From: Candidatus Omnitrophota bacterium | GTDB lineage: Bacteria > Omnitrophota > Gorgyraeia > Tantalellales > Tantalellaceae | Direction: 5' to 3' | Length of the DNA stretch: 64,000 bases | Assembly (NCBI GenBank): GCA_016783605.1 | Contig: JADHWG010000002.1 | Coordinates: 107-64,106, forward strand | Shown here: piece by piece, positions 1,746-49,600 of the stretch | How positions within the stretch are numbered: position 1 is the first letter of the stretch | Layout of the letters: each line of letters opens with the position of its first letter | Program-made: the position numbers and the translations under genes | The notes under the pieces: model-generated | What the model was told of the DNA's origin: nothing | The model's database searches: none | The model's input: only the letters and a program-made list of their open reading frames with translations

Positions 1746-4700
1746 ATGGGTAATTTTCGAGGGAAATTTTATGTGAAAGCTATCGCGGCGGTTGTCGCGG
1801 CGATCTTTTTGCATCAGCAAATCGCGTGGGCTCAAGGAGGGGCGGCTCCGGCGGCTATGCCTCCGGCGGCGCGCGTGAGTGAAAATGTTGGTGCCGGTCA
1901 AGTGGGGACCGATGTGTGTGACATTGATCTTCCTTACAATCTCGCGCATAGGGATGAAGTTTATACCGGCGCGCGCGAGGAAAAAATAATTCATCTTCAG
2001 GACGCGCATGCTTCGCTCAGCGCGCAGTATTCGCTGGTGAATCTTTTAGACGTTTTAGCGAAAAATTATGACCTTGAATTTATCGCGCTTGAGGGGACTG
2101 AGGGGGTTATTGACACGTCTCTATTAAAAAGTTTTCCGGATAAAGATATTAGAGAAAAAACCGCTGACCTTCTTATGCGGGAAGGGCGGATGAGCGCGGG
2201 TGAGTTTTTTCAAATAACTCGTGACGAAAAAAATATAATGCTCTGTGGAGTCGAGGATAACGAGCTGTATAAAGAGAATCTTGATGGGTTTTGCCAAGTG
2301 ATCGAACAGAGAGAGCCTCTGGTTAAAATGGTGAAGGCGTTTAGAGGGCAAATAGACGCGCTTGAAGAAAAAGTGTATTCGGACGAACTTAGAACGTTCA
2401 TATATAGAGGAAGGGCGCATAAAAACGGGACATTAAACTTTTCCGATTATTGGCGAGAAATGAGCCCGTTTCTTGAGAAATTCGGTATTGAAACCGGCAC
2501 TTTACGTGATATGCCTCTTCTTACCCAATCAATTGAGCTCGAAAGAAAAATAGATTTTGAAAAAGCGAATACCGAAAGAGGCGACCTCATAAGTGACTTA
2601 ACGGGCCGCCTTGAAAAAGACGAATTAAAAGCGCTAGTTCTGGAATCGGTTAATTTTAAGGAACAAAAAGTTTCACCCGCGAATTTTCATAAATATCTTG
2701 AAGAGCTTGCCAGAGAAAACAATATATCCCTCTCAGCGTACAAAAATTTCAGCATGTTCACCGAATACATATCGCTTTACGAATCCGTAGACATATTTAA
2801 TCTCTACAGTGAAGTGGAATCTCTCGAGAAAACTATTCGAGGAAAACTGTACAGAAATGAAGATGAACGCGAGCTGAATAAAATATCCGTTATGACGGAA
2901 CTTCTCCGTGGGCTATACAGCATAGAACTTTCATCGCGCGATTTCGGGTTTTTCGAAGAAACCCGCGAAAAATACGACGCGAAAAAGTTTGCCGCGTTTA
3001 TAAAAGACAAATGCGCTAAGCATAAGGTAACGATTGAAAAAGGATACGATCTTGCCGAGATGCTCGGGGGAATAAACTCCGCCGCCAACTTTTATGAAAC
3101 CGCCGCGAAGCGCGATCGGCTCATGATCCAAAATACGCTGAAACGCATGAAAAGTGAGAAAAAACGTGTCGCGGCGCTTATTACGGGAGGTTATCACACA
3201 AAAGGTCTCACCGAAATAATGAAAGAAAACAAACTTTCATACCTTATCATATCTCCGAAATTTGAAAAAGACGAAGAAAGGCCCTATGTCGCCGTTCTTA
3301 CCGGCAAAAAGAAACCTTACGAGGAGCTTCTAGAATCCGGAAAATACCAGATAATGGCGGCGGCGTGGAACAATCCTAATGACACCCCGGAAAGTCAGAT
3401 TTCAAAAACTGAGGAAATAGTGGCTTTAACCCGGGCAATAAACGATATGACTCAGGAAGACTGGGAAAATAACGGCGAGGAATGGAAAGGTTCGTTTTGT
3501 CCCGGTTCTTCTGTTGAAATTTTTAATGAGGATAAATTTAAAGAACTAATCGAGACTGTGGAAGGAAGAGAAATAGATGGCGCTGTTGTTACGGGATATA
3601 AGGGCGGTGAGCCGCGCGTCGCGCTAAAGCTTAATGAAAAATCCGAGATTCAACGAGTAGAAATTACCGAAAAACACAAGAGAATCTGGGAAAAACGTAC
3701 TGGTAATATTATGCTACATGTGAACCAAGTTTTTTCGATGACAAAATTAAAAACAGAGAGTGACATAGCGGAGTCAGTGGGCAATAAAATCGATAATCCG
3801 ACAATAGATACAGAATGGCAAAAGAGGAATATGATCATACATCCGGCTTTGGTGATTTCGGAAGAAAATATAAACAATACCATCGATCGGATGAGACCCA
3901 CTGTCATAGGGGTGGGACAAGATGAAAATGCGGAACAGAAAAGAATAACCGAAGAAATAAAAAGAGTGCTCAAAATAAAAGGAATTAATGAGGCAGAATT
4001 AAAAGATAAAATCGTTAAGAAATTTATAAACGCGGCTATGGAAGAGCTTAAGAGAAGGAATGAATCTAATCAAACGCCGAACCAAGATGAGCCTTTTGTT
4101 TTGACGTTAGAGAAGATAGAGAAGATTTGCCAAAGTTTAAGGGATGAAGCAGATAGTAGCTCAGTTGGACAGAATCCAGATGACCTGCGTAAGAAAGTAG
4201 AAAGAGCATTTATGGAAATGGGAGCTACGGAAGCATTTCTTAAAAGCGGCGCTGTCGAGAAACAGATACAACTATTAATGAAGATGATCGAGAAAAAAGA
4301 CGAGAAGAGTAACCCTAACGAGGCGAATTCGATATTTGCAAAGCTTGTTTCCAAAGATGAGGCATATTGGAACAATGTCGAAGAAGATATAAAGGGATAT
4401 CAAAAAGAATATAACACTACATATGTGAAAACTTCAAAACCATCAATATTTGAGCAATCTGAATTGGAGCAAACTGAAATAGATTTGGTTCGGGTAGTAA
4501 AAAAAGAAGAGAAGCTTGGGCTTGTTGATAATTCCTTGGTAGATTTTTTTAAAAAACTAAAAGATATGGAATCGGATAACGTATCTACTGAAGCACCGGA
4601 TCAAGTTAAGACGCCGCCTGCCGAGTTTGAAATTAAAGATCATGAAATAGGCTCCCGCGCGTATCCAAAATCAACCAAATTTGTAACAAATGAACCCACC

Positions 4701-7700
4701 CAGACTCAAGAAGATCCGATTGAATCCAAAGACATAAAAAAATCGTTCATGGAAAAAATCGAAGCTCAACTTGTGAGAATGACTTTTACGGCAACGATAT
4801 TTACCGCGCTCATGTTGATAATACTGCGGGGTGTAACACATAATCGAGCCAAAAAGGAAGAAGAGTACGCACCTCTAGTGGTACAAAAAAAAGAATCTGA
4901 CGAAAAATCGGTGGATGAGGCTGACGCTGTGACGGTTAAAAAAGACAACTTTATAAAATCAATTCCGGGAAAAATCGTAAAGTTTATAAAAGACAAAGCC
5001 AATTTGGTTATAAGGCATAAAAATCTGATCATAATGATGTTTGTATCTATCGGTTCGATCGCGGCGATTGCAAACGCGGAGTCTTTTGGATTTGTTCAAA
5101 CGATAGAAAGAGTGTCATCAACACCTCTATTCGCGACGTCAACATTTGGGATGGTAGAACTCATGATGGTGGTGGGGGCCGTAGCTCTCACTGTCTGGGT
5201 GTTTTTGAGTTTGGGCAAAGGAGAAATAGGCGCGGAAAGAAGATTACCTATTATTGAGATACTTCGCAAAGAAACCTGCAAGCTAGATATTATTGTTGCG
5301 GGAGTTTTCGCGTATCAGACCATTATTCAATATATGGCGGACGGTGCTTTTACGAAAGGCGTGTTCCTTTTTGCGATAGCAACTGCCGCTCTTATTTTTT
5401 CCGTATGGACATTCATAAAAGATGGACTGCTTGTAAAAACGGCGGGTGTGGAAAATAGAGAAACAAAGATGATAGAAGGAGATTTGAAATCTGGTGCTGT
5501 TGTAATGACAGTTACAAAAAAAGTTGAGGATGTTCCAGTTGCGGAAGTAACGAGTCGAAAAAAATTACTTTTTGTGCAAAGCAAAAATTGGTTAAAAAGC
5601 AAATTTGCGTTAGCTAAAAAATATAAAGACCTGATATCAGCTCTGTTCGTTTCTTCAATAATAGGCTTAGTGTCAATATCGCAGGCATATGACGGGAGTA
5701 TTGGGTTGAGTCCTTCTTCGATTATGGCGATGGCGGTGTTGTCCGGTTGTACAATAGGTGCGCTGGTATTTTTAATAAGAAGCTTAGATAAAACAAAAAA
5801 AATTAGTGATAAAAAAAACGCTTCTGTAGAAATTCCAAAGATAAGAAATTTCAAAGAATTAAAAGGATACGCGGGAATAAGCATTGTAACTTCGGCGATG
5901 ACGCTTTTAATTGGATATTTTCACAAACCGCTTTGGCAGATATGCTTGGATCTTCCAATGAAACATGAAATATTAGGTTCAATAACGGTTGGAGCGGGAC
6001 TTTTAACAAGCGCGGTCGTGGCGGGAATCGCGATATGGTTTACGTGGATTACACTAGACGCCGCAATACCCATGGGGCTTAAAAAAGCCGGTTCTTTTGT
6101 TAAGGGCATATTCCGTTTTGTAAAGACGTATTTTAGCGTGTTTATTGGGACAGTGTTTGCCGGGACATTGTGGTCGACGGTTGCGCGGGCGGTAAACAAT
6201 TCTGCGAATGTCGTAAGTATATTTGATGTGACCCAAGGAACAAAATTTAGTGTGATTATTCGATCGATACCGCGTAACGTGATCGTGCCGTTCGCTATTG
6301 TGATGATGACGGTTATTACGGCTGTATGGATATTTTCTGCGATTGTAAAGGCGGTTCGTTTGTATAGAGCACAGGAGAGAGGAAAAGTATCCGAAGAAGA
6401 AGTAGGAGAAATTAAGAAAAAACAGAACCGTTTTAATATTCAGGTATTTTCCAATATGGCGTTAATTCTTATCAGTTTTTTTGCGGCAAATAATGTGTCT
6501 TTGACCATGGAATACGCGCTTGTAATTATCCCTTTTGCTATTTTGGGACTATGCGTATATTCAATATATTCCGCGATACATTTTGTGTGCAAGCTTGTGC
6601 AGGATTACAGGAAACCATTAACGGAGCAGAAAAAATCGGAGCGGAAAAACAAAAAGCGGAGCTCAAAAGGAGAGGTTAAAATTTCTCTTCTTACGGGTAT
6701 GGTTTTTATGTTTATCGTGCTTGCTATAGGATGCATAACGCCGAAGGTTAATACAAAATCGGTTTTGGATAAAAGTGTGGCAAAAACGAAGATGGCGGAG
6801 ACGGTTGGGACGCAGAAAATGGATGATTCTAAAAAAATGGTGCCGCGAACAGAAACTGAACCGAAAAAGAAAGAAATTAAGATATGCGGGAATACACCGA
6901 ACGTGCATGACGCGGCGTGTGATGTCATAATACTCAACCCGAGTTATGGCGCGGTACAGGATGAGTGGCCGGATGAGATTTATTTTGATTATTGGGGAGA
7001 CATTACGGGGTATGAGGTTGAAATTATTTTTACGGAACTAGGAAAAAGAGAAAACACAAGAATTGAAATTTTCTTAAAAAACAAGAAATACATCAATATG
7101 AGTTCGGGTGCGGTAACGCCGGATAAAGATGGCGTAGTCAGGTGGAACCCGGCGGCTGTTGAGGGATGGCTTTTCAGAAAGTCAATGGCAAAGGCAAAAG
7201 CGAAATTTATAAAAAATAACGCGGCAATAAGTATTAAATTTCGAGGTATGGACGCGGAAGAGGGGGAAGATCATATAGAAGAAATCCGGTTTGTCAGGAA
7301 AGAAGTTAATAAGTCAAAAGGTGTATCTCGTTCGAAATTATTCACATGGGCGCCGATAATCGCGCTGACTTCATTTATTACGGGGTCGGGGATATTTAAC
7401 ACGGCGCTTGCGGGGGCGGCGGGGCTTGGCTGGATGAATGAGATTGAGGCTATTGCCGTGTCATCTCCATGGGGTGGATTGAGTCTAATGTGTTTATTGT
7501 TTGGGGCTATGTTAGCCGGCGCGGGGGCAATAGCATATATTTTTACCAATCTCTTGAACCTCTTTTCTTCGGAAATGGAAGGAAAAACTCTGCTTAAGGT
7601 GAGTCTGATCTGGATGGTATCAACCGGAGCAATCTTAGGATTATTGGCGAAAATCGGATCGATCGCAATCTGGGTAAACCGGTTTTTTGTTGGTGATATG

Positions 7701-10700
7701 CTTATGTCCTCCGGACTTACGACTATCGGAATGTCGACACTTTTAATCGCGCTCTTTGGGACGGCAATGATATCCGCAGGGTTGGTAATGAAAGGGACGC
7801 ATGATGTGTACTTTCAAAATAAAAAACGTGCTGAGGTGATATTTTCAAGCTTGGGCAGTGCGGCGGGGAGCGGGGTGTTGTATGTTCTGGCGCGCAATTG
7901 GCGGTTAATCGGTAATGCTTTGGAGGTGCTTGTGGTCGGAGGCCCGGCTAATATCGTTTTCGCCGTGGTTATCACGGTTGGCGGTTCCATAGGCACTGTA
8001 CTGTTTGCCGTTGCGACACTTGTGGCTATATCAAAAACGTGGTTTAAACTTGGGGAATTATCTGCCGAGAGAAAGCGTTCGGGTACGGCGCTTTTTACCG
8101 TTATAATGCTCATATTCGGTATTATGTTTTGTTGGGTTCCGGGAGTTGGGGCTAGTGGCGAAAAACCGGAAGATTTACCGGCGGTGAAATATACGGAGCC
8201 GAGAACTCCGGGGAATTATGTAGAACCGCGAGTGCCGGGGATCTATGTAGAACCGCGAACGCCGGGGACTTTTTCCGCGGCGCCGGATTCGGTAACTCCG
8301 AGAACAGATGTCGGGACGGATGAAGAAATTATACCTTTAACGGGGTGGTATCCGGAAACTTACGACGACAGTCAGGGGATTGTTGACGTTTATTGCGGCG
8401 AAGACGGAATATTGAAAATAGTCGCCGATATGAGAGGGCAGGATGATTATAGGCGTCAAGGTGAGGTTTACCGTAATCTTGATGAAGCAACAGATTTTAC
8501 CGGTAAAAAAGAAAGTTTTAAGGTTCGTGTGCCTGAAAAATACGCTTTGAATCAGGAGAATGGTGTCGTGCCGTATATGATGGATGTGAACGGGAATAAG
8601 CAATACGCGGATAGGGTGAAAATTACGCGAGCCGGGGAATGGGTAACTGTCGAGATGGTTCCTATGCCGTATGGGCGCACGCGGTTGAAAGGAAATGCGG
8701 GGAGATTCAAGTGGACGGATCCCGGGTTTGATCCTTCTCTTGGGATAACAAGGGTGGGTATAAAGTTTGTTATTGATGAGAAAAGTACGGATACGTTTAT
8801 TTCGGAGAATCCGGATGGGACTGTCAAAGACGGTTATATTGAAGTTGCGGATATCAGGATCGTGCCGATGGAAGGTGTTGTTCATGAGGCCGAATGGCAG
8901 AATGTTTATAGAGACGAGCCGATTGTTGTTCCGGCAGTAGACGCGGGGACGTTTGTCGCAAATTCAGGGGTGTCTCTTTATCTAAAGACGTATGAACGGG
9001 CAATAGGGACACCTGACGGTGTAACTGCGCATTATGAAGAAACTTTGAATGAATTCAAAAAATTAGCATCACGGGGAGTTAAAAAGGCGAGAATACTTCT
9101 GTGTATAGGATCAAAAAATACAAGCGGGATAGAATTTGATGATAACGATATGCCGATTGGGTTTAAAGATTTTGAAGGAGAGGACCTTAGCGGAGAAGAA
9201 CTTGCGATACTTGATTTTGCAAATCTGATAAGAATCGGTACGGAGACGGATATAGAAATGGCATTAGTTTTGCACAATAAAGATATTACGGAAGCACATC
9301 CCGGTGTTTTTGGCGATGAGGAGAAACGGGCGGCGTTAGTTGCTCTTGACAAGATCCTGCTTGATGGAGCGAAAGAAATGTTGGAGGAAGATGTTTGGGA
9401 ATATTTTGAATATGGGGAAGCACTGAATGAACCGGATGACGCAGGAACACATTCCTGGTATACCCAGGAATTCGTAAAGGCAGAGAATAAAATGATTAGG
9501 GACGATATCGGAAAACCCGTGACTCTCGGTCCGGCAAAAAGAGAACATATAGGTAACTGGCTCCTTTCGGATTCGGAGATGCTTAAACCAGGAGATATGT
9601 TCCAGATTCACGTATATAACGATAATCTTGATGAACTTCTCGCGGAGCTCAGGAGAAACATAGGTGAATTTGAGTGGCCGGAAGGTGTAACGATTTGTTT
9701 TGGTGAAGCGCAGGGGAATATCGGATCAGATTCAGTTATATCTGAAGCGTTTCCTGCCGCGCATAGATCCGGTGCGAAAAGAATATATTTTTGGCGTGAC
9801 AACCGGCTCTCTCCGAAATATACGGTGGATGAGGATGAATATCAAAGTACCGCACAATACATGATGAGCGCGGATTATGATACTGATGTGCCGGATGAAG
9901 TGGATGATACCGAACTACCTATAGCTCGTGCCGCTGTTAGCGATCAGACAGTAGATGAAGGTGTAGAGATAATCTTTAACGCCGGCGAGTCAACTGATGA
10001 AGGTGGAGAAATAGAAACTTTCAGTTGGGATTTTGACGATTATGATGGCATACAGGAAGACGCGGGTACGGTAACGGCAACACACACCTACGATGAACCA
10101 GGAGTTTACTTGGTAACTTTAACCGTAACTGATACCGCGGGAAATTCCGGAACGGATACCTTAACGATAACAGTGAATGAAGCTGTCGTGGATGACGATA
10201 CGGATGTAACGAATGAGACGGACGTGGATGTGACAGATGAGACGGACGAAGGTGTGACGGATGAGACGGACGGGGATGTGACAGACAAAGCTGACGATAC
10301 GGATACAAATAAAGACGACGTTGATAAACCCGGAAGTACGCTTGATACTTCTGACGGAGGGTGTTATATCGGTACAGCGTGGTTTAATGATAAATCTGAT
10401 AAATCGAAAGATATGAAACGTGAAAACACCCCGGGCGCGGAAGTGCTTGCGCGTGAAGGCGTGGGAAATACGCTTTTTGATAAGGTGATAAATTGGTGGG
10501 AGGGTTTAAAAACTTCGGTTAAAAAGCATTTTAACTTGGTTGTTATGATAATGTTTGGAGGAGCGCTTTTCTCGACTATCGCGCGTGCGGGAGAGCCGGG
10601 TGCTTTTGGGGAGGTGACAAAACAGCTTTTCGCGGTGTCGACGTTCGGGAAAGTGGAACTTGCGGTGGCGTCTCTTTCCGCCGCTGTCGCGATTGTAACT

Positions 10701-12503
10701 ATGATTTTAGCTTTTTGCAGAATAAATACGATAGAAGATGTATCTTTTCAGGAAAAGCCTGTCGTCAAAAAAATACGGATGGTAAATAACGTACTTTTGG
10801 GTGTTAACATTGGTATGGGTATAATGAAGGCGGCGAGGGGCGGCGGTTTTACCGCCGGAGTATCTCTTTTTTGTATATCAACGCTTTTGCTTGTGATTTC
10901 ACTTTTGATGTTGAAAGAGAAATTTGTGGACGCGCCTTTGGCTGGCAAACTCAACAAGGCTCAAGCTCGACGTTGGAATGCTATCGAATACTCCCGCGTA
11001 AAAACACCGATCAAAGTTCAATTTTGGAAGGTTTTTGAGGGAGCGAAAAAATGGATTCGTTCCGTTAAAAAGCGTTTTGACGTGTTTATTATGACATTAT
11101 TTGGAGTTGTGTTGAGTGCGGCTATTGCCAGTGCTAAATCTGGAGAAACTTTTGCTGAAGCATGGACATTCGCGGAAATAATAGTAGGAATTATTGGAGG
11201 ATTCGCTATAGCGGGAACGTTTCTTATATTGTTGGCTGTAAATTACATTATTAGACGCAACTATGAGGAAAGAGTAAAAGAAACTGAATTTAAAGTTGCG
11301 CTTGGATTGTCGGAGAAAATGTATGCGGACATCGTTAGAAATGGTCATAAGAATTTATTGAAAGAAATAACAAGCGATGTTGAAATAATACATCTTGAAG
11401 AAAGCGTTAGCCGGGAAGTCATGCAGGAAGAATTTAATGAAAAGACGAGGGGTCGAAGAGTTGTAGGTGCGATCGTGGATCCGACCGTGCTTGAAGTAAT
11501 TAACGGCATTGATGGAAACGACAATTCGCATAGCAGAAATCTTGATAAAAGTATGCGAATAATAGAAGATTTCATCAAAACCGCGAAAAAAGAGATCACG
11601 CCCCTTATGGCGCCGAAAGCCGGGTTTTTTAAACTGAAAGGGCTCACACAAAAGGCGATCAAGGAAGATTTTGATAAATTAGAAAAATTAACTAAAAAGA
11701 AAACAAAAGAGTGGGATGGCAAAATACAAGTGTTAGTCAGAACTTTGCCAGCGGAGAGTCTCCAGCTTGTGGATAAAGGTGCGTATCATGTTCCGGTGAA
11801 TAAGTGGCATAGAGCGGTTGTTGGGGAAAATAGAGTGAGTATAGACGCGAAACGTTTAGCTAAGGGAGGAGGAGGTCTAATTGTAGGTTCTAATCGCAAA
11901 TACATAAGTGTGTCAGCGTATGATCTCGCGGATTTGAGGTTTATCGCGAACGCGATCAAAGATTTAGGTGTTGATAAAGAAAAAGCGTCTCAGTTTATTC
12001 ACGTGAGACTGCGCAACAATAACGTGCGGACACGGGAAGATCTGCAAAAGTATATGGAAAAAACCGGACTAAGCGGATATCTTTATCCGAAAAATGTGGA
12101 TATTGTTTCCGAGCAGGAAGAAAAAGATATGACGCTTGAGAAAATTCTTTTTAAGGTGAAACATATGTTCTCCGGAGCGATGATTTCTGTTAGCAATGAT
12201 CAAATTTTTGTCGGCAATACGAGAGACTTGAATCTTTCTTCTGCGGATAAAATTACGCTAAGCCGCGAAAAAGCGCCAAAATTCGTTCAGATGAGAGGAG
12301 AGGGAATTGTCTCTCAGCTTCTTCTCGCTCTGGTTGAGTTTAGCGCCCGGGAAAAAATACCGGCGAGTTTGGGAAAAATAACGCTTGATCCGAATAAAAC
12401 GGGGCTTAAGATATACATATATGTTCCGAAAATAAAAAAAGCGGATTATGACGCGATACTTGACGTTATAAAGAATTATGAGAAGATGATGATGAGTGTT
12501 TAA
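1746..12503 (+). CDS. Giant multi-domain membrane protein, 3585 aa (paralog 1): N-terminal anchor, conserved N-module, two multi-TM clusters, CBM-like beta-sandwich, GH-A-like TIM barrel, PKD domain, acidic T/D-rich repeats, conserved C-module
   Basis: Single uninterrupted track ORF with an AGGAGGG RBS 7 nt upstream. The N-terminus MGNFRGKFYVKAIAAVVAAIFLHQQIAWAQGG is a hydrophobic anchor. Hydrophobic helices are clustered at about nt 4740-8170 and 10510-11270. The PKD signature WDFDDYDG...HTYDEPGVYLVTLTVTDTAGN lies at about 9990-10150. NEP and GE motifs lie in a barrel-like segment at about 8930-9810. The N- and C-terminal 500 and 430 aa are homologous to the ORF at 43636-59250. Confidence 0.85.
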   Translation: MGNFRGKFYVKAIAAVVAAIFLHQQIAWAQGGAAPAAMPPAARVSENVGAGQVGTDVCDIDLPYNLAHRDEVYTGAREEKIIHLQDAHASLSAQYSLVNLLDVLAKNYDLEFIALEGTEGVIDTSLLKSFPDKDIREKTADLLMREGRMSAGEFFQITRDEKNIMLCGVEDNELYKENLDGFCQVIEQREPLVKMVKAFRGQIDALEEKVYSDELRTFIYRGRAHKNGTLNFSDYWREMSPFLEKFGIETGTLRDMPLLTQSIELERKIDFEKANTERGDLISDLTGRLEKDELKALVLESVNFKEQKVSPANFHKYLEELARENNISLSAYKNFSMFTEYISLYESVDIFNLYSEVESLEKTIRGKLYRNEDERELNKISVMTELLRGLYSIELSSRDFGFFEETREKYDAKKFAAFIKDKCAKHKVTIEKGYDLAEMLGGINSAANFYETAAKRDRLMIQNTLKRMKSEKKRVAALITGGYHTKGLTEIMKENKLSYLIISPKFEKDEERPYVAVLTGKKKPYEELLESGKYQIMAAAWNNPNDTPESQISKTEEIVALTRAINDMTQEDWENNGEEWKGSFCPGSSVEIFNEDKFKELIETVEGREIDGAVVTGYKGGEPRVALKLNEKSEIQRVEITEKHKRIWEKRTGNIMLHVNQVFSMTKLKTESDIAESVGNKIDNPTIDTEWQKRNMIIHPALVISEENINNTIDRMRPTVIGVGQDENAEQKRITEEIKRVLKIKGINEAELKDKIVKKFINAAMEELKRRNESNQTPNQDEPFVLTLEKIEKICQSLRDEADSSSVGQNPDDLRKKVERAFMEMGATEAFLKSGAVEKQIQLLMKMIEKKDEKSNPNEANSIFAKLVSKDEAYWNNVEEDIKGYQKEYNTTYVKTSKPSIFEQSELEQTEIDLVRVVKKEEKLGLVDNSLVDFFKKLKDMESDNVSTEAPDQVKTPPAEFEIKDHEIGSRAYPKSTKFVTNEPTQTQEDPIESKDIKKSFMEKIEAQLVRMTFTATIFTALMLIILRGVTHNRAKKEEEYAPLVVQKKESDEKSVDEADAVTVKKDNFIKSIPGKIVKFIKDKANLVIRHKNLIIMMFVSIGSIAAIANAESFGFVQTIERVSSTPLFATSTFGMVELMMVVGAVALTVWVFLSLGKGEIGAERRLPIIEILRKETCKLDIIVAGVFAYQTIIQYMADGAFTKGVFLFAIATAALIFSVWTFIKDGLLVKTAGVENRETKMIEGDLKSGAVVMTVTKKVEDVPVAEVTSRKKLLFVQSKNWLKSKFALAKKYKDLISALFVSSIIGLVSISQAYDGSIGLSPSSIMAMAVLSGCTIGALVFLIRSLDKTKKISDKKNASVEIPKIRNFKELKGYAGISIVTSAMTLLIGYFHKPLWQICLDLPMKHEILGSITVGAGLLTSAVVAGIAIWFTWITLDAAIPMGLKKAGSFVKGIFRFVKTYFSVFIGTVFAGTLWSTVARAVNNSANVVSIFDVTQGTKFSVIIRSIPRNVIVPFAIVMMTVITAVWIFSAIVKAVRLYRAQERGKVSEEEVGEIKKKQNRFNIQVFSNMALILISFFAANNVSLTMEYALVIIPFAILGLCVYSIYSAIHFVCKLVQDYRKPLTEQKKSERKNKKRSSKGEVKISLLTGMVFMFIVLAIGCITPKVNTKSVLDKSVAKTKMAETVGTQKMDDSKKMVPRTETEPKKKEIKICGNTPNVHDAACDVIILNPSYGAVQDEWPDEIYFDYWGDITGYEVEIIFTELGKRENTRIEIFLKNKKYINMSSGAVTPDKDGVVRWNPAAVEGWLFRKSMAKAKAKFIKNNAAISIKFRGMDAEEGEDHIEEIRFVRKEVNKSKGVSRSKLFTWAPIIALTSFITGSGIFNTALAGAAGLGWMNEIEAIAVSSPWGGLSLMCLLFGAMLAGAGAIAYIFTNLLNLFSSEMEGKTLLKVSLIWMVSTGAILGLLAKIGSIAIWVNRFFVGDMLMSSGLTTIGMSTLLIALFGTAMISAGLVMKGTHDVYFQNKKRAEVIFSSLGSAAGSGVLYVLARNWRLIGNALEVLVVGGPANIVFAVVITVGGSIGTVLFAVATLVAISKTWFKLGELSAERKRSGTALFTVIMLIFGIMFCWVPGVGASGEKPEDLPAVKYTEPRTPGNYVEPRVPGIYVEPRTPGTFSAAPDSVTPRTDVGTDEEIIPLTGWYPETYDDSQGIVDVYCGEDGILKIVADMRGQDDYRRQGEVYRNLDEATDFTGKKESFKVRVPEKYALNQENGVVPYMMDVNGNKQYADRVKITRAGEWVTVEMVPMPYGRTRLKGNAGRFKWTDPGFDPSLGITRVGIKFVIDEKSTDTFISENPDGTVKDGYIEVADIRIVPMEGVVHEAEWQNVYRDEPIVVPAVDAGTFVANSGVSLYLKTYERAIGTPDGVTAHYEETLNEFKKLASRGVKKARILLCIGSKNTSGIEFDDNDMPIGFKDFEGEDLSGEELAILDFANLIRIGTETDIEMALVLHNKDITEAHPGVFGDEEKRAALVALDKILLDGAKEMLEEDVWEYFEYGEALNEPDDAGTHSWYTQEFVKAENKMIRDDIGKPVTLGPAKREHIGNWLLSDSEMLKPGDMFQIHVYNDNLDELLAELRRNIGEFEWPEGVTICFGEAQGNIGSDSVISEAFPAAHRSGAKRIYFWRDNRLSPKYTVDEDEYQSTAQYMMSADYDTDVPDEVDDTELPIARAAVSDQTVDEGVEIIFNAGESTDEGGEIETFSWDFDDYDGIQEDAGTVTATHTYDEPGVYLVTLTVTDTAGNSGTDTLTITVNEAVVDDDTDVTNETDVDVTDETDEGVTDETDGDVTDKADDTDTNKDDVDKPGSTLDTSDGGCYIGTAWFNDKSDKSKDMKRENTPGAEVLAREGVGNTLFDKVINWWEGLKTSVKKHFNLVVMIMFGGALFSTIARAGEPGAFGEVTKQLFAVSTFGKVELAVASLSAAVAIVTMILAFCRINTIEDVSFQEKPVVKKIRMVNNVLLGVNIGMGIMKAARGGGFTAGVSLFCISTLLLVISLLMLKEKFVDAPLAGKLNKAQARRWNAIEYSRVKTPIKVQFWKVFEGAKKWIRSVKKRFDVFIMTLFGVVLSAAIASAKSGETFAEAWTFAEIIVGIIGGFAIAGTFLILLAVNYIIRRNYEERVKETEFKVALGLSEKMYADIVRNGHKNLLKEITSDVEIIHLEESVSREVMQEEFNEKTRGRRVVGAIVDPTVLEVINGIDGNDNSHSRNLDKSMRIIEDFIKTAKKEITPLMAPKAGFFKLKGLTQKAIKEDFDKLEKLTKKKTKEWDGKIQVLVRTLPAESLQLVDKGAYHVPVNKWHRAVVGENRVSIDAKRLAKGGGGLIVGSNRKYISVSAYDLADLRFIANAIKDLGVDKEKASQFIHVRLRNNNVRTREDLQKYMEKTGLSGYLYPKNVDIVSEQEEKDMTLEKILFKVKHMFSGAMISVSNDQIFVGNTRDLNLSSADKITLSREKAPKFVQMRGEGIVSQLLLALVEFSAREKIPASLGKITLDPNKTGLKIYIYVPKIKKADYDAILDVIKNYEKMMMSV
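8195..8275 (+). repeat. Three tandem 27-nt coding repeats (EPRxPGxYV) inside giant gene 1
   Basis: Seen in sequence: gtagaaccgcgagtgccggggatctat and gtagaaccgcgaacgccggggact, following ccgagaactccggggaattat. Confidence 0.7.
10190..10330 (+). repeat. Tandem degenerate 27-nt coding repeats (VTDETDxxx) giving an acidic T/D-rich linker after the PKD domain
   Basis: Seen in sequence: gtgacagatgagacggacgaaggt, gtgacggatgagacggacggggat, gtgacagacaaagctgacgat. Confidence 0.7.
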
Positions 12504-12753: not shown

Positions 12754-12984
12754 ATGCCTACAAAAAAACCACGAATAAATGTAGTGCTTGAACCAAGATT
12801 GTACAAAATCTTGGTAAGAGTGGCACATGGAGAAGGGATTTCTGTATCTTTGGCGGCAAGAGATTTGATAAAGGATGCTGTTGAACTTTACGAAGATAGG
12901 TACTGGGCAAAAGTCGCTGAGGAAAGAGAGAAAACTTTTTCTGACAAGAAGGCTTTAACCCATAAGGAAGTTTGGGATCAGTGA
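12754..12984 (+). CDS. Ribbon-helix-helix (CopG/RelB-like) antitoxin
   Basis: ATG at 12754 inside track ORF 12634-12984, giving 76 aa. MPTKKPRINVVLEPRLYKILVRVAHGEGISVSLAARDLIKDAV is a typical RHH antitoxin N-terminus. Its stop overlaps the start of the downstream RelE-like gene. Confidence 0.7.
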   Translation: MPTKKPRINVVLEPRLYKILVRVAHGEGISVSLAARDLIKDAVELYEDRYWAKVAEEREKTFSDKKALTHKEVWDQ

Positions 12985-13286
12985 AATACACTGTATTTTA
13001 TCACCAGGATGTAAAACAGAAAGATCTTTCGTCTATCCCGGAAAATTTAAAGCAAAGAATTCGTAGGGCTATAGAAGAAAAATTAATGTTGGATCCTGAA
13101 AACTACGGTACTCCTCTAAGGAAAGGTTTACATGGGTACCGAAAATTGCGAGTAGGAGATTATCGGGTTATTTACAGCATTCGGAAAAGTAGTGCTAAGA
13201 TTAAAATTTTCAAAATTGGACACAGAAAAGAAGTATATAAGAATGCGCATACACGTGTAAAAGAAGTGTCTTACCTAACAAAATGA
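12981..13286 (+). CDS. relE: RelE/ParE-family toxin
   Basis: Track ORF 12972-13286. GTG 12981 overlaps the antitoxin stop as gTGA; TTG 12972 is an alternative start. LRKGLHGYRKLRVGDYRVIYSIRKSSAKIKIFKIGHRKEVY matches the conserved RelE/ParE core (RVGDYRVIY...I..IGHRK). Confidence 0.75.
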   Translation: MKYTVFYHQDVKQKDLSSIPENLKQRIRRAIEEKLMLDPENYGTPLRKGLHGYRKLRVGDYRVIYSIRKSSAKIKIFKIGHRKEVYKNAHTRVKEVSYLTK

Positions 13287-33147: not shown

Positions 33148-33645
33148 ATGGTTAAATATTCCGTAAGTATAACTTGGAGCGAAGAGGATGAGGGATTTAT
33201 TGCGATAGTTCCTGAGCTTAACGGCTTATCTGCTTTTGGTAAAACGTACAAAGAAGCTTCTGAAGAAATTGAAGTTGCTATTGAGAATTTTTTAAAAACA
33301 CTGAAGGATGAAAAAATTCCTATTCCAAAGCCTAAAAAACTTGAAGAATATAGCGGTCAAACAAGACTTAGGATGCCGAAAAAATTACATAGAATTTTGA
33401 CTAGTGACGCGTCAAATGAAGGAGTGTCTCTAAACGCGTATATGGTTTTTCTTCTGACGATGCATGCAAATGTTCATCGCCAGATAAAAGATTCATTGTG
33501 GCTTGACAAAATATTCCCCGATTTTACTAGCGAAAGCAGTGAGTCATTTCAAGAAGAATTTGGTGATTCTCAGGCAACGCCAGTTAGCGATGATCAAGAA
33601 AATTATGTTGATATGATGAAACCAAAGGAGAAAGTGACATGGTAA
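33148..33645 (+). CDS. hicB: HicB-family antitoxin (RNase H-like fold plus C-terminal RHH/HTH region)
   Basis: 165 aa starting 3 nt after hicA. YSVSITWSEEDEGFIAIVPELNGLSAFGKTYKEASEEIEVAIENFL is a typical HicB N-domain. Confidence 0.8.
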   Translation: MVKYSVSITWSEEDEGFIAIVPELNGLSAFGKTYKEASEEIEVAIENFLKTLKDEKIPIPKPKKLEEYSGQTRLRMPKKLHRILTSDASNEGVSLNAYMVFLLTMHANVHRQIKDSLWLDKIFPDFTSESSESFQEEFGDSQATPVSDDQENYVDMMKPKEKVTW

Positions 33646-43635: not shown

Positions 43636-46600
43636 ATGGGGAAAGAAAAAAGTTTATACATATTTACTGATGTTCGGCTCAAGAAAAGGCGAATCATTCG
43701 GGTTATTGCTTTTTTGGTAGCCTCGCTTTATCTGTTTCAGCAGATCGCGTGGGCACAAGGGGGAGCGCCTCGAGCGTCTTCGATCTCAAGACCTGTTTCC
43801 GGAACGGAAGGTGTTTCCCGCGGGGAATTGCCGAAAGTTCCTTATAAATTCGGAAAGACGCATGAATTTTCGGTGAATACGAACGAGACCGGTGAAATTA
43901 TATATCACATTCAGGATTCCCACGCTTCGCTCGGCGCGCAGTATTCGATCGTTGAGCTTCTTGATTCTCTCGCGACTGATTATAACGTGAATCTTATTGC
44001 TCTTGAAGGCGCCGAAGGATATATCGATACTTCCGTTCTCCAATCGTTTCCCGATAAAGAAATTAGGCGAGACGCGGCAGACCGCCTCATGAAAAAGGGA
44101 CTTATGGGCGCGGCTGAATTTTTTACCGTAACGCGGGATGAAAAAGAGATCGATCTTTATGGAATAGAAGACGAAGAGTTATACAGGAAAAACGTTAACG
44201 AATTCCGCGAAGTTGTTGAAGAGCGTTCCGTAAAAATCGCGAATATCGACGCGTTTCTCACGCAACTAAAACTTCTGGAAAAAGAAATTTGTTCGGAACG
44301 CCTTTTGCGTTTAAACCGCTATTCTTTTCTGCATAGAAATTGCGAATTAAGTTTTTCAAATTACCGGAAGGAGCTTTTGGAGTTTACGGATCGCTTTAAA
44401 ATAGATGAGGGGTCGGGGAATTTTTCTCCGAACCCTCATCCTGAGCAAGGCGAAGGATCTCTGGTTAATTTTTCAAAAGGGTCTATAGAGATCCTTCAGC
44501 CCTTTGGACTTCAGGATGAGGAGTCGGGAAACTCCCCGACCCCTCAAATAGATACCGGTAAATATTCGGAACTCGCAAAACTTACTGAAGCGATCAGCCT
44601 TGAAAAAAGTATAGATTTTCAAAAGGCCAATACCGAGCGGCGCGCGCTTATTGACAAACTAAGCGAGCTTTTAGATAAAGCGGCGCTTAAAGAACTTGTT
44701 ATTAAGTCCGTTGATTTTCAGCAAAACATGATATCCCCGTCGGAGTTTCATGAATATCTTGTGGGGATGTCTAAAAGCCGCAAAATCCCGCCGGAAACCT
44801 ATCCCAATCTCAATATGTTCGCGCGTTATATTTCCGTTTATGAAAAGGTTAATCTGTTTTATCTCACAAAAGAATGCGAATTTTTGGAAAAGGAGATCCG
44901 AGAGAAGCTTTATCGGAACGAAGACGAAAGAAAGCTTGTTGAAATTACGCAAATGACGCGTATGCTCCGGCGTTTATATAGCATGGAACTTACCCCCGGC
45001 GATCACAGTTTTATAAAAACGGAACGCGCGAGGCGATCCGCGGAAGAGTTTACTTTGTTTATAAAAGAGGCGTGCAAAAAATACGGCGTTATCTTTGAAG
45101 AAGGATACGATATCCCGGAAATGTTTGCCGGCATAGAACCGGCTATGACGTTTTATGAAACGGCAGAGAAGAGAAACCAGCATATACTCAAGAATACCGT
45201 TACGCGGATGAAGAAAAGCGGCGCGCGCGCCGCCGCGCTTGTCACGGGCGGATATCATACGGAAGGCCTTACAAAAATAATGAAAGAGAAAAAACTTTCA
45301 TACCTTGTCATCGCCCCCAAATTTGAAAGCGGCGAAGAACGTCCGTATATCGCGGTCTTGACCGGCAAGAAGAAACCTTACCAGAAACTTCTAAAAACCG
45401 GAAAATATCAGCTTGCGATGGAACCCTTCTTTTATCGATCGAATATGGAAGAGATGAAAGAAGACCTTTTTTACGCGCTTGGTCGAGTGGTGCTGAAAGG
45501 CGAGGATCTAAAAAAAGTTAAAGACGCGCTATACAACAATCACAAAATAGAATATGAAAAAAGAATTTCTCAAAAAGAAAAAGAAACAAAGTTTGACGTG
45601 ATCACGCCAACTGAACTCAAAGCCTTTTTGGACAATATACACGTTATAAGAAGCGGCACGAGCGCTGTTATCGGAGACAAAACGGATAAAAATTCAATTA
45701 TTGTACTCGCGCGAAAAAATAGTGTTTACAATTTCAAAACGGCGACGCCCTCGCAAAAGAGAAAGTTACTGAACCGCATCTCCGAAGGCAAAATGCCGGA
45801 AGAAATGGAGGGAATAGGAACTAATATAACCGATTTTGTTCATGACCGAAGCCAAATTCTAACAAAACTCGATAAGTCCACTCCCGCGATTGTTCAGAAG
45901 ATACTGGCAAACCTTACCGAAGGAAAAATAGACGAAAATGAGATTAAGGAACAAGCAGTAATCCTTTTAAAACGTAAAGGAATGCCTTCCGATTGGCAAA
46001 GCGATATCGGTCTCAAAAAGAGGGTAAACAGGGTGATAGCTTTGGTGCGCCAGGGTTTTGCCGCAAAAAAGACTGAAAAAGAAAAGAAAAAGTTCGGCGA
46101 GTGGAAAAAAGCTATAGATGTTGAAAAATATTGGGAAAATTTAAAAAACGTTCTTGGTGAAGTACCGGAAGAGGTGTTGGTTAACGGGATCGATTTTGAA
46201 TTCGCGAATTTTGTTGATCATATGTGGAGCTTTATCCAACAAATAATTGACAGTGAAAAATTTAAACGCGAAATAATTCAATGCTATAACCAAAAAAATG
46301 CTGACGCTGACAAAAACTACCAAGATATAATACAAAGACTGAAATCTCTCCGTTCGCAAATATTTTCTAATCAAACTTTTAATATATTGGGTGATGATGT
46401 TTCTCCAGAAATCCGCAAACACTGGAATTACATATTAAGCGAATATGTCGGGTGCCGGTGGTTTTCGGATATTACCGAAAAGCATGCCGAAATTTTCGAG
46501 GATACTCTCCACGAAAAAATTACATCTCAAAACAAATCGGAAATTGAGAAATATACGAAGCATTTTAGAAAAAACTTGCCCTTCAAAAGTAAAAAGAAGG

Positions 46601-49600
46601 TCCCCCTTCGCATCTTCATGAAATATCTGTATATCAAAATTTTAGAAGCCACAAAGTACTGGGAAAACGAAGTAGATGTTTATATAGAGTCAAAAGAGGA
46701 AACCTGTAATAACGGTGTAAAATATTTTATAAACAACATTGATATGAAAAATCTGGAAAAAGATCGTGTGAAAAAGGGAGAGAAAGACATTTGTGTCGTA
46801 TTAAAAGAAATGATGGATATACTTCTCGTGGGGAATTTGTATAGTGATTTTGCCAATCCAACGAAAGAAAAAAAGCGCGAAAAATATCCGGTTGATGATT
46901 CAGCAGAAACCTTAGATCATTTTTTCAAACTGAGAGAACAAACAAGGCGTGGAAAAGATACGGAACTGCACGTGCTTCACGATAATGTGGGGCTTGAACT
47001 GGTATCAATCTTTCATCTTATAGATTTTTGTATAAAAAATGAAATTGTGAAAAAAGTGGTGCTTCATACAAAAAATTATCCATATGCTATTTCAGATGTT
47101 GTGGGAGAAAAAGATATAAGGATGCAAATTAACGCGCTTCAAAACGCGTCAGAACTTTCAGATATAGCATTTGAGAAAACCGGAAATATTAAATATATGG
47201 AACAACTTTCAGACGATATTACTGGGCATCTAAAAAATCAAAATATTGTAATTGCTAAACCTCATTGGTTTCCGACACTCGGTCAAAACTTTCTGGACAT
47301 TCCTGAAGACTATTATAACGAACTTAAAAAAGCAGATCTTATTTTGGCAATGGGCGATGGCTGGTATAGCAAACTCTTTCTTACCCGCAACTGGAAGTAT
47401 ACAGCAGACGCAAAAGAAATCTTAAGCTATATGCCCGCTCCTACCGTCATCTTTCGTATAGGCAAAAACCCCATAATCGCGGGATTAACAGCCAAAATGG
47501 CCGAATATCTAAAAAAGATCGGCAAATGGTGGAAACCGCCAAGATTCGGCATGATACATTTCGCGCGAGGAGGGAAATACGCGCGTAAAAAAGCTTATAA
47601 CGAATACGAAACACATGAGGAGGCCATTGACGAACAGCTTGAGATCGCTTATGCCGAAGGCAGATTTAAGGCGGTAAGCGACGAAATCGTAGCGCCCGTC
47701 GCAGAATTTTTCAAAACGTCAGGTTATGAAAAAATATCGAAGAAACTAACTAAAGATCCAAACACAGCTACGCGCCAGATAGCGATTAACGAGGTTACCG
47801 GCATAGAGGATTTTAGGGGACACGCGAGTTGGCGGGGTATACACATAAGCGCGGAACTTGATGATGAAGAAAAACAAAAAGTGCTCGTTCACGAGGTCGG
47901 TGCATATTATCGACTTACGCATGGACTTAACCTGGATTTAGAAGCGTTATATTTGGACTATCTTAAGAAGAAAGAAATAGACAAAAAAACCGCACGCGAA
48001 AAATTTAAAAAACTGAAAGAGATGAAAGAGCTTCCTGAAGGTTTTTCGCCTGAGAGGGATTATTCTGGTGAGCCTCTTCGCGTTATTGAGGGTAACGCGA
48101 AAAAAGCAACTTTCTTTCATATTATTGGGCGAAAAATAAAGAGAATTGTTTTTCGTGTTATCGGACGGAAAGAAAAGACGTGTTCACTTTACGTTATTGA
48201 AGGGAAGGCAAAAATGGAAAGAGATCCCGGATATTTTCCTTCGGAAAATTCCGGGATGACAAGTGTTGAGTTGTCGAGAAATTCCAGGATGACAAAAGAG
48301 CGAACTTCACAAAATTCCGGCCAACGCGCTGTCATCCCGGTCGAAGAGCCGGGATCTATTTTTAGAAACTATAAAAAATTATTTAAACTCCTTTCGATTT
48401 TTACTTTTATATTAGGATTGATTATCGTACCTGCGATAAAATTGACTCATTTTATGACGCCATCTAAGAACGCGCCGCCTTTTGAATACAGAATTAAAGA
48501 ATCTGTAAAACCTGTAACAGATTTTCTTGTAAAAGGGCTCAGCGCGCACGGGCCCACGGATATCATAAAAATTGAACCGCAAGGGACTTTTTCCATTGAA
48601 CACGGCGTTGAAATAACAGCGTATAACGCACTTTATGATGTGCCGTCAAATGCGTTTGTTTCGGATTATTACCTTATGTTTGTCTTTAAAGAGGGGGTTT
48701 CTCCGGGAACGCGTCTGCAAATTTTTCTTAAGAATCGAGAATGGAAGAACCTATACGCATATCCGGGTTCGCCTACCGGAGGCAAAGTTATATTTCGTCC
48801 GGGAATAGATCCCTGCAACGTATGTCAATTTAAACCGGAAGAGACGCCATATGGTGATATCTCCGCTATCGGAGTTAAGGTTTGGGACGGCTCATCGGGT
48901 AACGCGCTTAGCAACTTAAAAAAAGTTTATGTAGTCAAAAATGGTATTAAACCGGAAGATGTGCTTAGGGAGAAAAAAACGCCTCTATCACAAGAGAAAA
49001 AAGAATCTCAAAAAACACCGGTGCCGCAATTTGTAAAAACACCGCAAGAAAAACTGCCCGCACCACCGGTGGCGATACCGCAGGAGAAATCGAAGAAACA
49101 AAAATCATCTGATCCTGACGCGATAGTGGTTCCTTTAGACATTCCGGGCACATGGTACGGTCAGAAATGGCCTGACAGCCAGGCGATATCCAATGTGCGT
49201 TATGACCCAAAAAGAAAAGCTTTGGTAGGAGATTTTAATATCATACAGGGCCATCCGAATCTGGATAGAGGGGAAGTAATAGTTGATGTGCTTGACCTCG
49301 GGATATCCCCTTTCAATTTTGATAAATGGGAACTTACAGCTGATGTTAAAGTTGACGTAAAAGAAGGCAGTTTCGGACATACGCCGAATAATGCTGATGG
49401 CGTGGGATTTTTTGTAAAAACCGGACCCGCGCAAGGCTGGAAGAATGCCTATGAATGGGAAAATCATCCGGAAAACGAGGTCGGCGATTGGAAAACAATA
49501 TCGTTTAGCCGCGGAGAATTTAATAAGATAGACAGAGTTGATCCTCAGGACGGGTTCCCTCTAAAAGATCCGATAATCAGGATGTTTGGGATTAAACTGG

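Follow-up and report, generated by a model that had tools for sequence, protein, structure and literature searches.

A conserved N-terminal head in giant Omnitrophota proteins: a probable, highly divergent relative of the Ere/TIKI hydrolases

We analyzed a 64,000-nucleotide stretch of DNA from a Candidatus Omnitrophota bacterium (assembly GCA_016783605.1, contig JADHWG010000002.1, positions 107 to 64,106 of the forward strand; hereafter the window), in which two very long open reading frames (ORFs) encode giant proteins that begin with the same conserved module. Each giant appears to consist of a Sec-type leader and an enzyme-like head of about 475 residues (residues 62-536 of ORF1), ahead of a body of thousands of residues, and this head is probably a very divergent member of the superfamily that contains the erythromycin esterases (Ere) and the TIKI hydrolases. 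Judged from its predicted structure, it is most likely an exported hydrolase with a helical lid of 270 amino acids. It does not belong to the TraB/PrgY/GumN family or to any other TIKI family of Pfam as currently defined.

The conserved head and its family

The features on which the following description rests are all on the plus strand; positions are those of the window and residue numbers those of the respective protein.

1746-12503, + strand: giant ORF1, 3585 residues (ORF list)
1746-1832, + strand: signal-peptide-like leader of ORF1, residues 1-29, with basic residues, an AIAAVVAAIFL core and HQQIAWA/QGG, the slash marking the putative cleavage site (hydropathy, column counts)
1929-2258, + strand: N-terminal half of the predicted alpha/beta core, residues 62-171 (AlphaFold2 models, invariance, register with Ere)
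1986-2018, + strand: IIHLQDAHASL, residues 81-91; D86 and H88 in 173/173 homologues, Q85 in 152/173
2079-2096, + strand: FIALEG, residues 112-117; E116 and G117 in 172/172
2259-3065, + strand: predicted all-helical insertion, the lid, residues ~172-440 (AlphaFold2 model, predicted local distance difference test (pLDDT) score mostly >85)
3090-3137, + strand: arginine helix, FYETAAKRDRLMIQNT; Y450 and R456 in 167/167, N463 in 163/167
3174-3209, + strand: ALITGGYHTKGL, residues 477-488, strand 4 followed by G481-G482-x-H484, 166/166
3237-3353, + strand: strand 5 (SYLIISP) and invariant R512-P513-Y514; the conserved module ends at about residue 536
43636-59250, + strand: giant ORF2, a paralogue of ORF1, 5204 residues (ORF list)
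43843-45414, + strand: N-terminal module of ORF2, residues ~70-593, with the equivalents D94, H96, E124, R513 and H541
within the ORF2 module, + strand: IYHIQDSHASL, residues 89-99; LIALEG, residues 120-125; ALVTGGYHTEGL, residues 534-545

The preliminary description of this DNA had drawn attention to the three motif pairs in this list, and all of them are real, in frame and present in both long plus-strand ORFs. The distance from the first histidine to the glutamate is 28 residues in both paralogues (H88 to E116 in ORF1), and the two histidines lie 396 residues apart in ORF1 and 445 apart in ORF2. That both giants carry the same module was borne out by BLASTP, which aligned residues ~10-536 of ORF1 with residues ~21-593 of ORF2 at 46% identity (E 3e-164) and found no similarity between the two proteins beyond residues 536/593. 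The intervals first proposed for the module, 1929-3430 and 43846-45440, run about 25-75 nucleotides past its C-terminal boundary. When the six-frame translation of the window was searched with a hidden Markov model (HMM) of the family, exactly two copies of the head were found. ORF1 is 100% the same as a database protein (P0070) encoded on an ENA metagenome contig.

Conservation was assessed in an alignment of 175 diverse members, most of which are less than 50% identical to each other, the number of sequences counted varying from column to column. D86, H88, Q94, E116, G117, G168, E266, Y450, R456, G481, G482, H484, P504 and Y514 are 100% conserved, N463 is 98% conserved, and the position of E170 is always glutamate or aspartate. 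The two histidines and the glutamate that had been put forward as putative metal ligands are thus invariant in 166-173 diverse homologues. The lid has invariant positions of its own, E266 (174/174), F271 and R278, which lie within LEKxIDFxKANxER.

Both giants start with basic residues, a hydrophobic core of 11 residues and a conserved F..QQ.xWA/QGG, and the F..QQ..WAQGG pattern is kept throughout the family. By its sequence, this leader resembles a Sec signal peptide that ends in a cleavage site of the A-x-A type, and we therefore infer that the head is probably located outside the cytoplasm.

When 1.84 billion cluster representatives were searched with a profile, 9,693 matched at E<=1e-3, 6,479 of them at E<=1e-30, which places the module far beyond chance; the family comprises about 9,700 clusters at 50% identity. 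In all 150 of the 9,693 matches that were listed, the head is confined to the first ~750 residues of proteins of 449-7,834 amino acids. The pairing of such a head with a giant body had been called unusual, a view that does not hold within this lineage, since the head is N-terminal in every one of these 150 homologues, many of which are thousands of residues long. A word-indexed search returned 38 relatives, nearly all from Candidatus Omnitrophota metagenome-assembled genomes and mostly ending at contig ends, while a single peptide pattern confirmed 217 loci in species-representative genomes; the 80 of these that were listed all come from metagenome-assembled genomes labelled Omnitrophota/Omnitrophica, Candidatus genera or 'uncultured Planctomycetia'. 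Several genomes carry multiple copies, for instance three heads within 133 kb of contig PLNN01000019.1. On contig JBDRHE010000007.1 of GCA_043817155.1, a head-bearing gene begins 479 bp after a giant ORF of more than 7,255 residues, so giant genes can be arranged in tandem.

The head also occurs by itself. A complete stand-alone copy of 518 residues (P0031), 31% identical to the ORF1 head, is encoded at 10001-11557 of a locus from the 125-kb contig Ga0401392_0000539 (JGI 3300037657), with a xanthine/uracil permease gene on one side and tilS/ftsH on the other, and no giant gene was found within 10 kb of it. The existence of this form among housekeeping genes indicates that the head is a self-contained unit.

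Predicted fold and relation to TIKI-type proteins

An AlphaFold2 model of the full module (residues 61-540) reached a pLDDT of 87 and a predicted template modelling (pTM) score of 0.75. It runs from a strand-helix-strand core through two short helices and a third strand into about 270 residues of helices, and then continues with a long helix that carries R456 and N463, followed by the strand that has GGYH at its end, one more helix and another strand. In the N-terminal half, D86-x-H88 comes after strand 1, and E116-G117 and G168-x-E170 form the ends of strands 2 and 3; the lid lies between strand 3 and the arginine helix, and H484 follows R456 at a distance of 28 residues. The modelled alpha/beta core, a parallel beta-sheet flanked by helices, agrees with the published description of the TIKI fold (PMC6254334), as do a histidine after strand 1 and a glutamate after strand 2, together with an arginine and a second histidine in the C-terminal half. 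In the model, the conserved residues are placed at the C-terminal ends of the strands, with D86-x-H88 after strand 1, E116 after strand 2, G168-x-E170 after strand 3 and GGxH484 after strand 4, while Arg456 and Asn463 would project from the helix preceding strand 4, and the 270-residue helical lid would be inserted where Ere enzymes have a smaller helical domain.

When the full model was compared with the PDB by Foldseek, EreC (6xcq and 6xcs) headed the list at ranks 1 and 2, and the Ere-family protein Bcr135 appeared at ranks 5, 8 and 30, at E-values of only 0.15-1.6; the rest of the list consists of helical-bundle proteins that match the lid. We also modelled a lid-deleted construct in which residues 62-185 were joined to residues 432-535, using an alignment of intact homologues below the concatenated core row. 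This model (pLDDT 82, pTM 0.79) was searched against 350,542 PDB chains, and the first five ranks were all taken by structures of the TIKI/Ere superfamily:

rank 1: HopBA1, 5t09, E 6.3e-3, Foldseek probability 1.00
rank 2: Bcr135, 2rad_B, E 1.0e-2, Foldseek probability 0.97
rank 3: Bcr135, 3b55, E 1.9e-2, Foldseek probability 0.87
rank 4: EreC, 6xcq, E 4.3e-2, Foldseek probability 0.82
rank 5: Bcr135, 2rad_A, E 5.2e-2, Foldseek probability 0.84

The alignment with HopBA1 covers 167 columns at 9% identity, with a template modelling (TM) score of 0.44-0.46 and a root-mean-square deviation of 5.6 A. After rank 5 come P-loop proteins with probabilities of <=0.2; a P-loop nucleoside triphosphatase was rejected as an identification in view of this low probability and the absence of a Walker A motif. 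A search of the viral library BFVD returned uncharacterised proteins only. Of the two affiliations offered in the preliminary description, the erythromycin-esterase-like one agrees with these results, in which the predicted fold lies nearest to Ere/TIKI proteins, whereas membership in TraB/PrgY/GumN does not stand, no match to PF01963 having been obtained at E<=10 and hhalign probabilities having stayed below 20%.

The Ere family (PF05139; EreA/B/C/D and Bacillus cereus Bcr135 and Bcr136) is the best structural match of the full module and holds ranks 2-5 with the core. The head shares with it an order of elements in which a strand ending in histidine, a helix, a strand bearing glutamate 28 residues on and a strand ending in Gly-x-Asp/Glu are followed by a helical domain, an [RK]-D-x-x-M helix and a strand leading to a histidine. 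The spacing of 28 between histidine and glutamate is the same in the head, Bcr135 (H85/E113), RRSP (H3902/E3930) and EreB (H46/E74). An hhalign alignment that was itself non-significant sets four residues of the head against Ere invariants (H88/H46, E116/E74, G168/G131 and E170/D133), and the N-terminal half of the head aligned with that of Ere at P 0.0099, as against 0.12-0.81 for mismatched halves. The two families differ in their motifs, the head having Q-D-x-H where Ere has G-E-x-x-H (invariants G42, E43 and H46) and G-G-x-H where Ere has A-H-N-x-H (invariants H285, N286 and H288), and in their lids of ~270 and ~120 residues, respectively. Unlike Ere enzymes, the head comes with a secretion leader and is in most cases part of a membrane protein of several thousand residues. 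In ORF2, the lid contains an extra low-complexity insertion of ~57 residues, rich in Gly, Ser, Pro and Glu (residues ~255-312, window 44410-44562; GSGNFSPNPHPEQGEGS...PTPQIDTGK), which is absent from ORF1 and the other aligned homologues.

HopBA1, a type III effector of Pseudomonas syringae, is a small protein that is delivered into host cells and is not known to have an assigned enzymatic activity; it has no helical lid of the size found in the head. It represents a minimal TIKI/Ere-like core (PDB 5T09) and, like Bcr135, ChaN and PMT, is among the reported structures of the TIKI superfamily (PMC6254334). RRSP (DUF5) of the MARTX toxins sets a precedent, being a hydrolase of TIKI fold that is carried within a giant protein secreted by bacteria; its catalytic set comprises E3900, H3902, E3930, R4001 and H4030, with H85 and E113 reported for Bcr135 (PMC6254334). 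The head and RRSP have the acidic-x-His pattern in common (D86-x-H88 and E3900-x-H3902), and the distance from arginine to histidine is 28 residues in the head (R456/H484) and 29 in RRSP (R4001/H4030). RRSP, however, is an internal effector domain that is freed by a separate cysteine protease domain and acts inside host cells, whereas in the listed homologues the head directly follows the leader at the N-terminus, and no sequence similarity between the head and RRSP was detected. With TraB/PrgY/GumN proteins such as E. coli YbaP, the head shares the general pattern of a histidine, a glutamate and R-N...G-x-x-H, and the R-N...GxxH stretch at the C-terminal end falls into register with the head in non-significant alignments. 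The first motif of the head nevertheless lacks the glycine of the G-[ST]-x-H of TraB/GumN, the His-Glu and Arg-His spacings of YbaP are 26 and 24 against 28 and 28 in the head, and hhalign pairs the first glutamate of the head with the central L-E motif of TraB rather than with its first glutamate.

The assignment to the Ere/TIKI superfamily has to be set against several results that speak the other way. Pfam and NCBIfam scans of both modules, 37 members, 22 lid-deleted cores and the family consensus gave sub-threshold matches only. The ChaN family (Cofac_haem_bdg, PF04187), annotated to the Tiki superfamily, is the only named TIKI family with recurrent HMM matches, which are sub-threshold (E 0.02-0.07, 13.5-14.2 bits against a gathering score of 27.7, in only 2-3 members) and map to the Arg...His region of the head, where they cover positions ~159-204 of the 213 in the profile. 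DUF5682 (PF18934) and DUF5694 (PF18950), on which a literature search found nothing, recurrently match the same Arg...Gly-Gly-x-His stretch below threshold. PF01963, with a gathering score of 26.8 bits and scores of 150-250 bits for genuine members, was absent at E<=10 from the 37 full modules, the 22 cores and the consensus, and PF05139 gave no match in the scans of modules, cores and consensus. Profiles of the full module and of the core alone retrieved no TIKI entry from the PDB sequences. For direct comparison we used YbaP with its orthologues, six diverse plasmid TraB/GumN proteins and 125 Ere-family proteins, the EreB probe being 100% identical to ere(B) on plasmid NZ_CP044036.1; hhalign gave a probability of <=19% (not significant) with TraB/GumN and of <=4% with Ere (P 0.01-0.06, ~15% identity), and hmmsearch against the YbaP orthologues and the six plasmid proteins was likewise not significant. 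The first motif is without the glycine of GxxH, and the second has a single invariant histidine. The better of the two Foldseek searches rests on an artificial, lid-deleted construct, and even there the E-values are only 6e-3 to 5e-2 and the TM-scores below 0.5. Finally, some TIKI-fold proteins are not enzymes, ChaN binding haem and the C1-C2 region of PMT being inactive.

The failure of the profile tests carries little weight, because they are equally unable to connect Ere with TraB/GumN: in control runs, a genuine TraB/GumN profile matched no TIKI protein of the PDB, and hhalign compared Ere with TraB/GumN at a probability of 0.5% and in the wrong register. A genuine TraB/GumN protein also cross-matches ChaN and Ere on the same Arg...His region, and the recurrence of the ChaN matches at this place counts in favour of the assignment. 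The full-module profile showed in addition a weak match to troponin C EF-hand pairs (E 0.0065-0.04; ORF1 residues ~180-243, window ~2283-2474, 'HKNGTLNFSDYW'), which is probably due to chance, since the calcium-binding acidic positions are not conserved.

Possible activity and alternative explanations

By analogy with the Ere enzymes and RRSP, the His-Glu pair of the head would activate a water molecule and an ester or peptide bond would be cleaved, with Arg456 holding the substrate and the second histidine also taking part. Catalysis by Ere enzymes and RRSP is reported to be independent of metal, and that by Tiki to depend on it; Tiki trims Wnt, and RRSP cuts Ras (PMC6254334). As for the substrate, the head is conserved, the bodies of the paralogues share nothing, and the literature describes the giant ORFs as poorly conserved, which together favour a substrate or partner that is constant. 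We therefore speculate that the head probably acts on something constant, which could belong to the envelope or the secretion route of the cell itself or be a site within the giant polypeptide; a prey molecule that varies is a less likely substrate.

It is conceivable that the resemblance to Ere/TIKI proteins has arisen by convergence or chance, the head being an unrelated three-layer alpha/beta protein with a helical domain whose His and Glu residues mimic the TIKI pattern. This would account for the lack of any significant sequence or profile match to a TIKI family, for the marginal Foldseek E-values with TM-scores below 0.5, and for P-loop and other Rossmann-like proteins following close behind in E-value in the lid-deleted search. 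We nevertheless consider it improbable. Ere-family structures were the top two matches of the full model and TIKI structures occupied ranks 1-5 with the core, among all the PDB chains searched, at Foldseek homology probabilities of 0.82-1.00 against <=0.54 for everything else; four invariant positions coincide with Ere invariants in the alignment, histidine and glutamate are separated by the same 28 residues, a Walker A motif is absent, and the profile tests fail between genuine TIKI families as well. A different possibility, to which we give somewhat more credence while still holding it unlikely, is that the head is TIKI/Ere-like in fold yet non-enzymatic, a binding or docking module in the manner of ChaN or PMT C1-C2. 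Such a module may tether the giant to a constant partner (the secretion or pilus apparatus, or an envelope component), and its conservation may then reflect that interface. Consistent with this, the one recurrent Tiki-annotated Pfam family is that of ChaN, a haem-binding lipoprotein and not a demonstrated hydrolase; PMT C1-C2 keeps the fold without the 2His/2Glu motif and is inactive (PMC6254334); many invariants (Q94, E266, R278, Y450 and R512-P513-Y514) lie outside the putative active site; and the head remains constant while the paralogues have nothing in common after it. On the other hand, the acidic-x-His, Glu, Arg and His of active TIKI enzymes are all 100% conserved among representatives that are <50% identical, whereas inactive members such as PMT have lost the residues of the active enzymes.

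A further explanation, raised in the preliminary description, retains catalysis and directs it in cis: the head would be a processing protease that cuts the giant polypeptide, or else its own leader or linker, and so releases or matures the body. TIKI-family peptidases exist, as Tiki acting on Wnt and RRSP acting on Ras demonstrate, the head is N-terminal in every listed homologue, many of these being thousands of residues long, and self-cleavage has been proposed for the other N-terminal peptidase domains (C39 and S8) of Omnitrophota giants (West-Roberts et al.). The existence of stand-alone 518-residue copies with no adjacent giant gene speaks against such a role, and no conserved candidate cleavage sequence follows the module, the similarity of the paralogues stopping at residues 536/593; we regard this reading as rather doubtful. 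An exported Ere/TIKI-type hydrolase remains our preferred interpretation. A bolder version of it, which we rate as a long shot, would make the head the founder of an enzyme family not described so far, which acts on a constant self component and defines a whole class of giant membrane proteins in Omnitrophota; it might cleave the giant polypeptide, transfer it onto the cell envelope or gate its export.

Giant bodies, genomic setting and significance

The bodies had been pictured as adhesin-like, which their hydropathy does not support. A Kyte-Doolittle scan revealed about 22 transmembrane-like 19-mers in ORF1 and about 14 in ORF2, arranged in clusters, and both giants therefore look like polytopic membrane proteins rather than plain or soluble adhesins. 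The clusters and the domains recognised outside the head are as follows.

ORF1, + strand, residues 1009-1664, 1914-2134 and 2928-3157: transmembrane-like clusters
ORF1, + strand, residues 2724-2810, window 9915-10175: PKD domain PF18911, E 2e-18, the sole Pfam domain recognised in ORF1
ORF2, + strand, residues 1585-1603, 2779-2907, 3351-3417, 3858-3913 and 4641-4796: transmembrane-like clusters
ORF2, + strand, residues ~886-1289, window 46291-47502: ARMT1-like damage-control phosphatase domain PF01937, E 8e-26

The ARMT1-like domain of ORF2, which is of a normally cytoplasmic enzyme type, is located after the exported-looking head and ahead of the first transmembrane cluster.

The giant genes are separated and surrounded by genes, all on the plus strand, that encode Era, MgtE, PurH, a Mur-ligase-family protein, MnmE, FolE, an L,D-transpeptidase, AccA, MlaEFD, a CHASE2-SpoIIE phosphatase, iPGM, an arginase-family protein, LeuRS and ComEC. 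The idea that one of them encodes a dedicated partner was considered and rejected, the neighbours being housekeeping genes. Small genes of toxin-antitoxin type flank the giant genes: directly after ORF1, at window ~12754-13286, gene calls on an identical contig place a 76-residue ORF and a ParE-toxin ORF, and a HicB-family antitoxin lies at window 33148-33645. All family-assigned ORFs of the window are on the plus strand, and the GC skew is positive in every 2-kb bin but that at 50001-52000 (-0.009), a pattern consistent with a single replichore and strong co-orientation.

Giant ORFs of Omnitrophota have been described as poorly conserved, with few annotated domains (Seymour et al.), and their N-terminal regions as ones that 'generally lack identifiable domains' besides C39 and S8 peptidases (West-Roberts et al.). 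TIKI, TraB and esterase domains find no mention in a 2026 preprint on 916 long Omnitrophota proteins, and within the literature searched we found no description of the head family. The head thus provides a large and sharply conserved N-terminal family that can serve as a marker for finding and classifying giant genes, even in fragmented assemblies. It suggests a testable function for these proteins, that of an exported Ere/TIKI-type hydrolase with five named residues open to mutation (D86, H88, E116, R456 and H484), and the stand-alone 518-residue form, or residues ~30-540 of ORF1, is of an expressible size and offers an entry point to otherwise intractable proteins. If the assignment holds, the superfamily, which includes antibiotic esterases, Wnt proteases and toxin effectors, would gain in the head a very divergent branch marked by an oversized helical lid. 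Should it prove in addition to be the founding enzyme domain of the giant class, one and the same conserved catalytic 'installer' would serve again and again in deploying giant bodies, which are hypervariable and number in the thousands.

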